Origin: Escherichia coli
Lineage (GTDB): Bacteria; Pseudomonadota; Gammaproteobacteria; Enterobacterales; Enterobacteriaceae
NCBI RefSeq assembly: GCF_003334815.1
Contig: NZ_QOWO01000011.1
Direction: 5' to 3' (one strand)
DNA: 64,000 bases
Both the position numbers and the translations under genes were made by a program. Below are positions 26,106 to 52,232 of the stretch, one piece after another (the first letter of the stretch is position 1; each line of letters opens with the position of its first letter). Below the pieces are notes generated by a model. The model searched no databases and was not told where the DNA came from. It saw only the letters and a program-made list of their open reading frames with translations.

Positions 26106-26864
26106 ATGAAACAAACACAACGTCACAACGGTATTATCGAACTGGTTAAACAGCAGGGTTATGTCAGTACCGAAGAGCTGGTAGAGCATTTCTCCGTCAG
26201 CCCGCAGACTATTCGCCGCGACCTCAATGAGCTGGCGGAGCAAAACCTGATCCTGCGCCATCATGGCGGTGCGGCGCTGCCTTCCAGTTCGGTTAACACG
26301 CCGTGGCACGATCGCAAGGCCACCCAGACCGAAGAAAAAGAGCGCATCGCCCGCAAAGTGGCGGAGCAAATCCCCAATGGCTCGACGCTGTTTATCGATA
26401 TCGGCACCACGCCGGAAGCGGTAGCGCACGCACTGCTCAATCACAGCAATTTGCGCATTGTCACCAACAATCTCAACGTTGCTAACACGTTGATGGTAAA
26501 AGAAGATTTTCGCATCATTCTCGCCGGTGGCGAATTACGCAGCCGCGATGGCGGGATCATTGGCGAAGCGACGCTCGATTTTATCTCCCAGTTCCGCCTT
26601 GATTTCGGCATTCTGGGGATAAGCGGCATCGATAGCGACGGCTCGCTGCTGGAGTTCGATTACCACGAAGTTCGCACCAAACGCGCCATTATTGAGAACT
26701 CGCGCCACGTTATGCTGGTTGTCGATCACTCGAAATTTGGCCGTAACGCGATGGTCAATATGGGCAGCATCAGCATGGTAGATGCCGTCTACACCGACGC
26801 CCCGCCGCCAGTAAGCGTGATGCAGGTGCTGACGGACCACCATATTCAACTGGAGCTGTGCTGA
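26106..26864 (+). CDS. glpR: Glycerol-3-phosphate regulon repressor (DeoR family)
   Basis: 252 aa; N-terminal HTH, DeoR-type sugar-phosphate domain. Confidence 0.93.
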   Translation: MKQTQRHNGIIELVKQQGYVSTEELVEHFSVSPQTIRRDLNELAEQNLILRHHGGAALPSSSVNTPWHDRKATQTEEKERIARKVAEQIPNGSTLFIDIGTTPEAVAHALLNHSNLRIVTNNLNVANTLMVKEDFRIILAGGELRSRDGGIIGEATLDFISQFRLDFGILGISGIDSDGSLLEFDYHEVRTKRAIIENSRHVMLVVDHSKFGRNAMVNMGSISMVDAVYTDAPPPVSVMQVLTDHHIQLELC

Positions 26865-28444
26865 TCCTGCACGGCTTCCCACGTCAGACCAAAACGCGCC
26901 AGGTATTTGCGTAGCCGATCCGCGTCATTGACGCTGGCTTTGCCCTGGCGCGAAACGTCAAAAAGCTGGCGTCCGGCTGCGGAAAGCGACTTTGCCTGGC
27001 GGCAGATAGCGATAACGTGTTCCAGTTGCATACGGTCGAAGAGATCGATGTTTTCTGCCTCTGCGCCCAGCAACGCCGTAAGCGCGGAGGGGCGGCTCTC
27101 CTGCCAGTTATAGCGCAGACGGTTTATCTCATCTTCAACCACGTCCAGAGTGATGCGTCCGCTAGTGGCAAAGGTGGCCATCCGCGTGACGCTGGCAGAA
27201 AGTTCGCGAAAGTTACCGCGCCATGTTGCCTGGGGAGAGGTCGCAAAAGCCAACCAGGCGCGCCGCGCTTCGGTGTTAAAACGCACGCTGTCGCCAGTGA
27301 GTGAGGCGTGGCGCTCCACTTCATAATCCAGGTTCGGTTCAATATCTTCCTGGCGCTGGCGTAGACCCGGCAGGGTGAAGGTCCAGAGATTGATCCGCGC
27401 GTACAGATCTTCGCGAAATTTGCCTTCGGCAACCAGCTGGCGCAAATCGCGCACCGTTCCGGCGATAAGCTGAAAATCACTGCTCACCTGGCGATCGCTG
27501 CCAAACGGGTAAAAGGTTTTCTCTTCAATGGCTTTCAGCAGCATTGCCTGTTCGTCTGCGCCCAGTTCGCCAATCTCATCAAGAAACAACATTCCGCCGT
27601 TGGCGCTGCGTAATAAACCTTCACGAGATTCCCGCGCCCCGGTAAACGCGCCTTTTACATGACCAAACAGCGTCGACATGGCGGTATCGCCGCGCAGGGT
27701 GGCGCAGTTCACTTCCACAAACGCGCCGCTAAACTGATGCCGCGCCTGTTTTAACTCGAAGATGCGTCGCGCCAGAAATGACTTGCCCGCGCCGGTTGGA
27801 CCGTTAAGCAGAATCGGCGCGCGGGATTTGATCGCCACTTTTTCGATCTGCTCAATCATGCGGTTGAAGTGGGGGTTACGCGTGGCAATGCCGGACTTAA
27901 GAAAATCAAGCGTTTGCTGGCGTTCCTCGGCAAAGCGGCTGGCGATGGCGTTATAACGGCTTAAATCGAGATCGATAATCGTTACTTCACCTGGGCCGCG
28001 CGGCTGTTCTTTTTTGCGCGGAGGTGAAGATTGTATCAGCCGGGCGGGCAGGTAACGCGCTTCTGCCAGCAGAAACCAGCAAATCTGCGCGACGTGGGTA
28101 CCGGTGGTGATGTGAATTAAATAGTCTTCTTTTTCTGGCTGAAACTCGTAACCACGGGCGAAATCATGCAGGCAGGCGTAGACCTCTTCGAAATCCCACG
28201 GGTTATGCAGTTCAATCTCAACGCTCACCACTTCTGTTTCTGGCGAAACGCTGGCGATATCGCGTTTAAGCGTTTCAAATAGCGAGCGCGAGCGGGCGTC
28301 GTGCAACAATTCCAGTCGATCGATGACCAACGATTCTTGCTGGCATAAACAGAGTGTCGGACGCCATTTTGACCAGCGCTGACTGCCGCGCCCGGCATAA
28401 TCCAGTACGGTACCGACAAAGCCAAAAGCCACTGTTTTACGCAT
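26846..28444 (-). CDS. rtcR: Sigma54-dependent transcriptional activator of rtcBA
   Basis: 532 aa; AAA+ Walker A GPTGAGKS and the GAFTGA motif typical of bacterial enhancer-binding proteins; divergent from rtcB. Confidence 0.93.
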
Positions 28445-46880: not shown

Positions 46881-46912
46881 AAAAATGCCGGAGATATTCT
46901 CCGGCACTTTTA
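46881..46912. terminator. Bidirectional hairpin terminator (probably for yhgF)
   Basis: GCCGGAGATATTCTCCGGC stem-loop flanked by an A-run and a T-run. Confidence 0.5.
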
Positions 46913-52198: not shown

Positions 52199-52232
52199 AA
52201 ACGGGAGGCGAAGGTGCCTCCCGTTTTGCTTT
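52199..52232. terminator. Terminator between the convergent envZ and pckA ends
   Basis: AACGGGAGGC-gaaggt-GCCTCCCGTT followed by TTGCTTTC. Confidence 0.65.

Follow-up and report, generated by a model that had tools for sequence, protein, structure and literature searches.

Two pairs of convergent genes in a stretch of Escherichia coli DNA, glpR/rtcR and ugpQ/yhhA, run into each other tail to tail, so that the members of each pair share their last codons. The question raised by this arrangement is whether a coding overlap between convergent genes is a regulatory device, or an ordinary product of tight gene packing. The stretch analysed, referred to below as the window, comprises 64,000 nucleotides of contig NZ_QOWO01000011.1 (RefSeq assembly GCF_003334815.1) and corresponds to the reverse complement of approximately 3.5227 to 3.5875 Mb of the MG1655 genome. 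Both overlaps are already known: they are part of standard annotation, overlaps of their class have been counted and modelled since the 2000s, and there are published transcript maps. We consider it likely that they are ordinary convergent coding overlaps, which arose by drift of stop codons between tightly packed genes, and that the overlap as such has no dedicated function.

Position, frame and frequency of the overlaps

The gene glpR (26106..26864, + strand), the final gene of glpEGR, encodes a DeoR/GlpR-family repressor of 252 aa that ends in HHIQLELC, with its TGA stop at 26862-26864. Facing it is rtcR (26846..28444, - strand), which encodes the 532-aa sigma-54 activator of rtcBA and has its TGA at 26846-26848 on the - strand. 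The two coding sequences thus have 19 bp in common (26846-26864, both strands, stops included). This segment contains the rtcR stop, rtcR codons 528-532 and one nucleotide of D527, and these face the glpR stop, the last five glpR codons and one further nucleotide; the phase is 123:213, in which the third codon positions of the two genes are opposed. At the other junction, the 3' end of ugpQ (1..118, + strand) runs in from the start of the window; the gene encodes a GDPD-family glycerophosphodiester phosphodiesterase (PF03009) ending in GPNFTAQ, with TAG at 116-118. Its neighbour yhhA (105..545, - strand) encodes a Q-rich DUF2756 protein (PF10956) of 146 aa with a signal peptide, which ends in PLKTIGP, with TAA at 105-107. 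These two genes share 14 bp (105-118, both strands, stops included) in phase 123:132. At both junctions the genes lie on opposite strands with facing 3' ends and at least one shared nucleotide, as in convergent overlapping gene pairs generally.

The preliminary description had given these overlaps as 19 bp and 14 bp; both lengths are exact in the sequence and agree with RefSeq. In MG1655, rtcR (3558268..3559866) and glpR (3559848..3560605) have 19 bp in common, and yhhA (3586943..3587383) and ugpQ (3587370..3588113) have 14 bp. RefSeq annotation of further E. coli strains gives identical overlaps, and both junctions, taken as 100-bp and 200-bp sequences, are present in about 5423 of 5426 complete E. 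coli genomes. GlpR, RtcR, UgpQ and YhhA each have homologues as well as RefSeq annotation, which indicates that all four genes are real protein-coding genes. As the overlaps are set by stop codons alone, ambiguity in the choice of start codon cannot abolish them.

The reference glpR of MG1655 carries a 1-bp deletion at nucleotide 151 (codon 51), which leads to a premature stop at codon 106 (window 26106-26864 compared with L001 3849-4606). The gene is intact in the window, and the strain from which the window derives is therefore not the MG1655 reference. Elsewhere in the window, the RyhB sRNA at 5724-5788 (+ strand) is the sole Rfam match, and ggt and ryhB lie closer together than in MG1655, which fits the absence of the IS1E insertion in yrhA.

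Among the 11 convergent junctions in the MG1655 equivalent of the window, two overlap and the remaining ones are separated by 28-205 bp. Convergent coding overlaps in E. coli have been counted as 58 (Lillo & Krakauer 2007, PMC2174442) and as 75 (Huvet & Stumpf 2014, PMC4161906); they have been ascribed to mutation of stop codons, and their length turns over fast (PMC2174442; PMC4161906). For a null expectation, we took 42 long ORFs of the window and let a simulated ORF enter each from its 3' end, in every antisense phase, and continue until its first stop. The median antisense run was 40 bp in the phase of glpR/rtcR and 57 bp in that of ugpQ/yhhA; 71% of simulated runs reached at least 19 bp and 90% at least 14 bp. 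Simulated runs are mostly longer than the overlaps observed, which therefore lie on the short side of what is expected of an unterminated frame. The overlaps are not above chance expectation.

In their opposite strands, common 3' ends, short extent and length that is labile between species, the two pairs resemble the convergent overlapping pairs described earlier (PMC2174442; PMC4161906). Among convergent overlaps of at least 5 nt, the phase of ugpQ/yhhA is the commonest, whereas that of glpR/rtcR is the least common (18%), yet it is the phase of all 4-bp overlaps (PMC2174442).

The two junctions among relatives

A scan for RtcR with one genome per species yielded 21 loci, and eight genomes were sampled per junction. 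We found glpR as the convergent neighbour of rtcR in five Escherichia genomes other than E. coli and in Klebsiella oxytoca, Intestinirhabdus alba and Superficieibacter electus. The C-terminus of GlpR (QLELC, then the stop) is invariant across all relatives examined. The five Escherichia genomes and K. oxytoca have an overlap of 19 bp with the RtcR tail QDQHSSS. In I. alba a 7-nt deletion shifts the frame of the rtcR tail, so that the protein ends in ISTAPAEYGDR and the overlap is 35 bp, and in S. electus, where RtcR ends in VKEMAN, the overlap is 4 bp (CTAA).

When RtcR proteins of 16 genomes are aligned, the last conserved motif of the family ends at E. coli V525; between 2 and 11 unrelated residues follow it, and the E. 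coli tail QDQHSSS is unconserved. The codon for Q526 sits 2 nt outside the glpR stop codon. The conserved part of RtcR thus ends before the glpR stop is reached, so the overlap comprises only the unconstrained tail of RtcR, antisense to the constrained end of GlpR. All four substitutions found within the 19-mer (in locus L006, in L007/L008 and in L025) lie where third codon positions of the two genes coincide, and they leave both proteins unchanged.

About 570 of the 5426 complete E. coli genomes are without most of the rtcR region, yet retain the 100-bp glpR/rtcR junction. At locus L025 (2880-3130) the rtc locus is gone, and a remnant of approximately 115 bp from the rtcR 3' end lies between a 906-aa ORF, probably malT, and an intact glpR. 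Other changes to the region were also seen: E. coli NZ_AP022221.1 (L034 1841-3127) encodes an RtcR shortened to 428 aa by an internal deletion, with the 19-bp overlap with glpR kept, and other strains carry insertions of ISVsa5, IS1A or IS30 in the 2.6-kb glpR/rtcR region.

The comparison of the yhhA/ugpQ junction was based on contigs that encode homologues of YhhA. The overlap is 14 bp in E. albertii, 17 bp in a Citrobacter with a divergent YhhA tail, and 4 bp (TTAA or CTAA) in Salmonella, Yokenella, Enterobacter and Phytobacter; in Buttiauxella the genes do not overlap and are separated by a gap of 91 bp. The spacer in Buttiauxella agrestis (L029 1954-2044, 91 bp) is a long REP-like palindrome (approximately -39.6 kcal/mol) that is absent in the other genera. 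Within E. coli, changes in the Q-rich repeats of YhhA give proteins of 96 to 165 aa.

An unconserved tail and an overlap whose length varies among relatives, the two features that characterize an origin by loss or shift of a stop codon, were found here, with lengths of 19, 35 and 4 bp at one junction and of 14, 17 and 4 bp, or the 91-bp gap, at the other. The 4-bp CTAA and TTAA overlaps of the relatives have the form that is typical of the convergent class. Where packed genes have no spacer between them, one frame would continue antisense into its neighbour until it met a stop. At glpR/rtcR the end of glpR would be fixed by its conserved C-terminus, and the last six codons of RtcR would form an unconstrained tail, the sequence of which is dictated by the antisense strand of glpR; the same sort of drift at ugpQ/yhhA would have given 14 bp in Escherichia.

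Transcript ends at overlapping and gapped junctions

The preliminary description had pointed out that no gap is left in which either transcript could have a terminator of its own. This is correct, and the terminator must sit within the coding sequence of the neighbour, an argument put forward in 2007 about convergent overlaps in E. coli (PMC2174442).

On the glpR strand, a Rho termination region designated 'antisense rtcR' has been reported at MG1655 3559514 (- strand) (Adams et al. 2021, PMC7815308, supplementary file 2). This position maps to window 27198 (+ strand), approximately 334 nt past the glpR stop and inside rtcR, and is approximate, as the published method works in windows of 800 nt. 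DirectRNA-seq gave 154 reads upstream and 29 downstream of it without bicyclomycin, and 153 and 256, respectively, with bicyclomycin (Rho score 8.9, p = 2.7e-27; PMC7815308). These data are from MG1655, in which glpR is frameshifted, and Rho may load differently in a glpR+ strain like the one from which the window derives. In ending in a bicyclomycin-sensitive region, one of 1078 tabulated, the glpR-strand RNA is like other Rho-terminated antisense transcripts; 51.5% of the mapped Rho regions are antisense to genes (PMC7815308).

The 19-bp overlap was rejected as a terminator in its own right, as neither strand folds better there than shuffled sequence (z about -0.6), and an Rfam scan of the whole window placed no family on it. 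On the rtcR strand, a weak terminator-like site lies inside glpR (26340..26374, - strand), approximately 470 nt past the rtcR stop, and is at chance level in a simple scan (d = 1.8). Scans for consensus terminators and promoters around both junctions gave results at or near shuffle expectation, and the C:G skew downstream of the stops offers no more than a modest C>G patch over the 80 nt that follow glpR, which does not decide the matter. Adams et al. 2021 (PMC7815308) report Term-seq ends at neither junction, none of these genes appears in the TERMITe or SMRT-Cappable-seq supplements, and no 3' ends were found for rtcR, for ugpQ or for the 3' end of yhhA. A literature search for rtcR and glpR jointly, or for antisense transcription of rtcR, in terms of an overlap found no paper.

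For yhhA there is a candidate intrinsic terminator within the ugpQ coding sequence (20..57, - strand), 48-85 nt beyond the yhhA stop; it consists of a hairpin (57..26) with the tail UUUAUU. The hairpin has 14 pairs and a 2-nt bulge (approximately -22.7 kcal/mol), its folding z is -4.6 to -5.4, and none of 200 shuffles matches it; the palindrome folds on both strands (z -4.6 and -4.7). The element (57..20, -) thus has the G+C-rich hairpin and the U-tract 3' of a stop that characterize intrinsic terminators. By a hairpin-plus-U-tract score, it is one of only 20 matches in 128 kb, and most of the others lie at obvious gene ends. All eight genera have a hairpin at this position, even Buttiauxella, in which a spacer separates the genes. 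Across these genera, however, 84% of cells are paired compared with 81.5% in shuffles (50 of 500 shuffles reach the observed value), with only two double changes; as pairing is not above that of shuffles, constraint on the UgpQ protein could explain the conservation of the hairpin. In three Term-seq conditions no RNA 3' end was found at the yhhA U-tract (MG1655 35874xx), which is a weak negative given the low yhhA signal. Judged from sequence and folding, the yhhA transcript probably ends at this hairpin and U-tract inside ugpQ.

A second, weak terminator-like hairpin lies in the other direction at 140..169 (+ strand), 22 nt past the ugpQ stop and inside yhhA, with the tail CGUUUCUCCU and z -1.85. 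It was rejected as a terminator of ugpQ, as it fails a stricter score and its host gene is full of CAG/CTG palindromes. YhhA has a recurring QHML motif whose coding sequence is the perfect palindrome CAGCATATGCTG, hence the many hairpins of the gene. A published Term-seq 3' end at window 494 (- strand; MG1655 3586994, + strand) falls 51 nt into the yhhA ORF, among the signal-peptide codons; it was seen in two growth conditions and is not Rho-dependent (Rho score 0.65). Genomic SELEX has also placed a sigma-28 holoenzyme binding peak inside ugpQ, either before the start of the window or within 1-118 (PMC5493296).

Transcripts also run into their neighbours at junctions with normal gaps. Rho regions are reported antisense to mrcA, downstream of convergent nudE (MG1655 3524915, - strand; approximately window 61800), and antisense to gntT, downstream of convergent malQ (MG1655 3547196, - strand; approximately window 39500) (PMC7815308). 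The gaps at these junctions are 165 bp (nudE/mrcA) and 110 bp (malQ/gntT). The pair rpnA-bioH, also from this window and with a gap of 28 bp, is listed as a convergent excludon (PMC12288877). As neighbours are invaded at gapped junctions too, the coding overlap is not the cause of the invasion. Bidirectional intrinsic terminators, with palindromic hairpins and U-tracts on both strands, were seen in ordinary intergenic gaps at 46886-46907, 52202-52223 and 61267-61282; the second (pck/envZ) and the third (mrcA/nudE) are at convergent junctions.

These observations divide the preliminary suggestion that such overlaps can cause transcriptional interference or antisense pairing of 3' ends. Its transcriptional half stands, in that transcripts do enter the neighbouring gene, as seen in the Rho region at 27198 and in the yhhA-ugpQ excludon. 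The link from coding overlap to interference does not, as gapped junctions behave alike, overlap lengths are unconserved, and about 570 genomes are deficient in rtcR. Under the reading that we favour, in which the overlaps come from stop-codon drift, transcripts would stop inside the neighbour, through Rho for glpEGR according to the published data and probably through the ugpQ-embedded hairpin and U-tract for yhhA. The mRNAs would then overlap at their 3' ends, as they do at many other convergent junctions, whether or not the coding sequences overlap too.

Alternative explanations and significance

The most serious alternative is that the overlaps are selected regulatory devices, or convergent excludons, in which transcription of one gene represses its partner, either because RNA polymerases interfere with each other or because RNase III cuts the paired 3' ends. 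In that case rtcR would be linked to the glp regulon, and yhhA to the ugp operon, which is under Pho control. It counts in favour of this explanation that yhhA-ugpQ is among the 165 convergent excludons of MG1655 in the ExcludonFinder map, found in at least 50% of 58 transcriptomes (PMC12288877); however, the listing records overlap of transcripts and not reciprocal regulation, and glpR-rtcR is absent from the list. As in 146 of the 165, there is a predicted terminator inside the transcription unit of the neighbour, but excludons need no coding overlap and have a mean intergenic distance of 95 nt in E. coli (PMC12288877). Transcription on the glpR strand covers approximately 330 nt of the rtcR 3' end and goes up when Rho is inhibited, although in normal conditions Rho limits this antisense transcript. 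An RpoS-holoenzyme 'constitutive promoter' has been reported by Genomic SELEX in the ggt-yhhA spacer (window approximately 546-637) (PMC5493296), and with such a promoter upstream of yhhA the two partners would answer different signals.

Comparative evidence likewise bears on both sides. Gene adjacency is conserved across several genera, and excludon pairs in general show higher synteny (PMC12288877). That adjacency and a zero or negative spacer persist over several enterobacterial genera speaks against the neutral view, as regulatory coupling would also predict it. Neither the length nor the phase of the overlaps is conserved, however; Buttiauxella has its 91-bp spacer, most of rtcR has disappeared from some 570 E. 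coli genomes in which glpR is intact, and junctions with normal gaps behave in the same way. We therefore regard selection of the overlaps as regulatory devices as unlikely, and a regulatory effect of either overlap on gene expression is not supported.

A more specific proposal would combine two elements. Read-through from glpEGR, capped by Rho approximately 330 nt into rtcR, would act as a condition-dependent antisense brake on rtcR, and the ugpQ hairpin (codons PQR...RWG) would be a selected terminator that fixes a reciprocal switch between yhhA and ugp. We treat this combination as a long shot; if it were true, glycerol-3-phosphate status or Rho activity would, through the brake, govern the expression of an RNA-repair regulator.

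It is also scarcely probable that the junctions are collision-driven bidirectional terminators, in which a hairpin in the overlap pauses the converging RNA polymerases and head-on collisions set both 3' ends, as in the SEnd-seq model. That model has been described for hundreds of E. coli convergent pairs, and the likeness to bidirectional terminators (Ju et al. 2019; Wang et al., 10.1101/2022.10.23.513370) lies in the convergent genes and in the ugpQ-embedded palindrome that folds on both strands. Terminators of this class are described as Rho-independent and intergenic, with sharp overlapping 3' ends, whereas at the two overlaps the genes leave no space between them, the only end that has been mapped depends on Rho, and sharp ends are undocumented. 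A small hairpin does lie at 26852-26878, but at glpR/rtcR folding is no better than that of shuffles (z -0.6), the glpR-strand transcript extends approximately 330 nt further to its Rho-dependent end, and Term-seq 3' ends are reported at neither junction. Efficiency in the model climbs with expression, and this too counts against it for glpR, rtcR, ugpQ and yhhA, which we take to be weakly expressed.

Finally, the preliminary description had named stops upstream of those inferred as the finding that would remove the overlaps; the chance of such an annotation artefact, through sequencing error or a mis-assigned frame, is negligible and we reject it, as nothing was found in its favour, homology backs each frame up to its last few residues, the identical sequence occurs in about 5423 complete genomes, and independent annotations concur.

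The reading by stop-codon drift accordingly implies that regulation should not be deduced merely from the fact that convergent genes overlap in their coding sequences. An overlap of the kind found at glpR/rtcR marks, in this case, the unconstrained tail of one protein running into a constrained neighbour.
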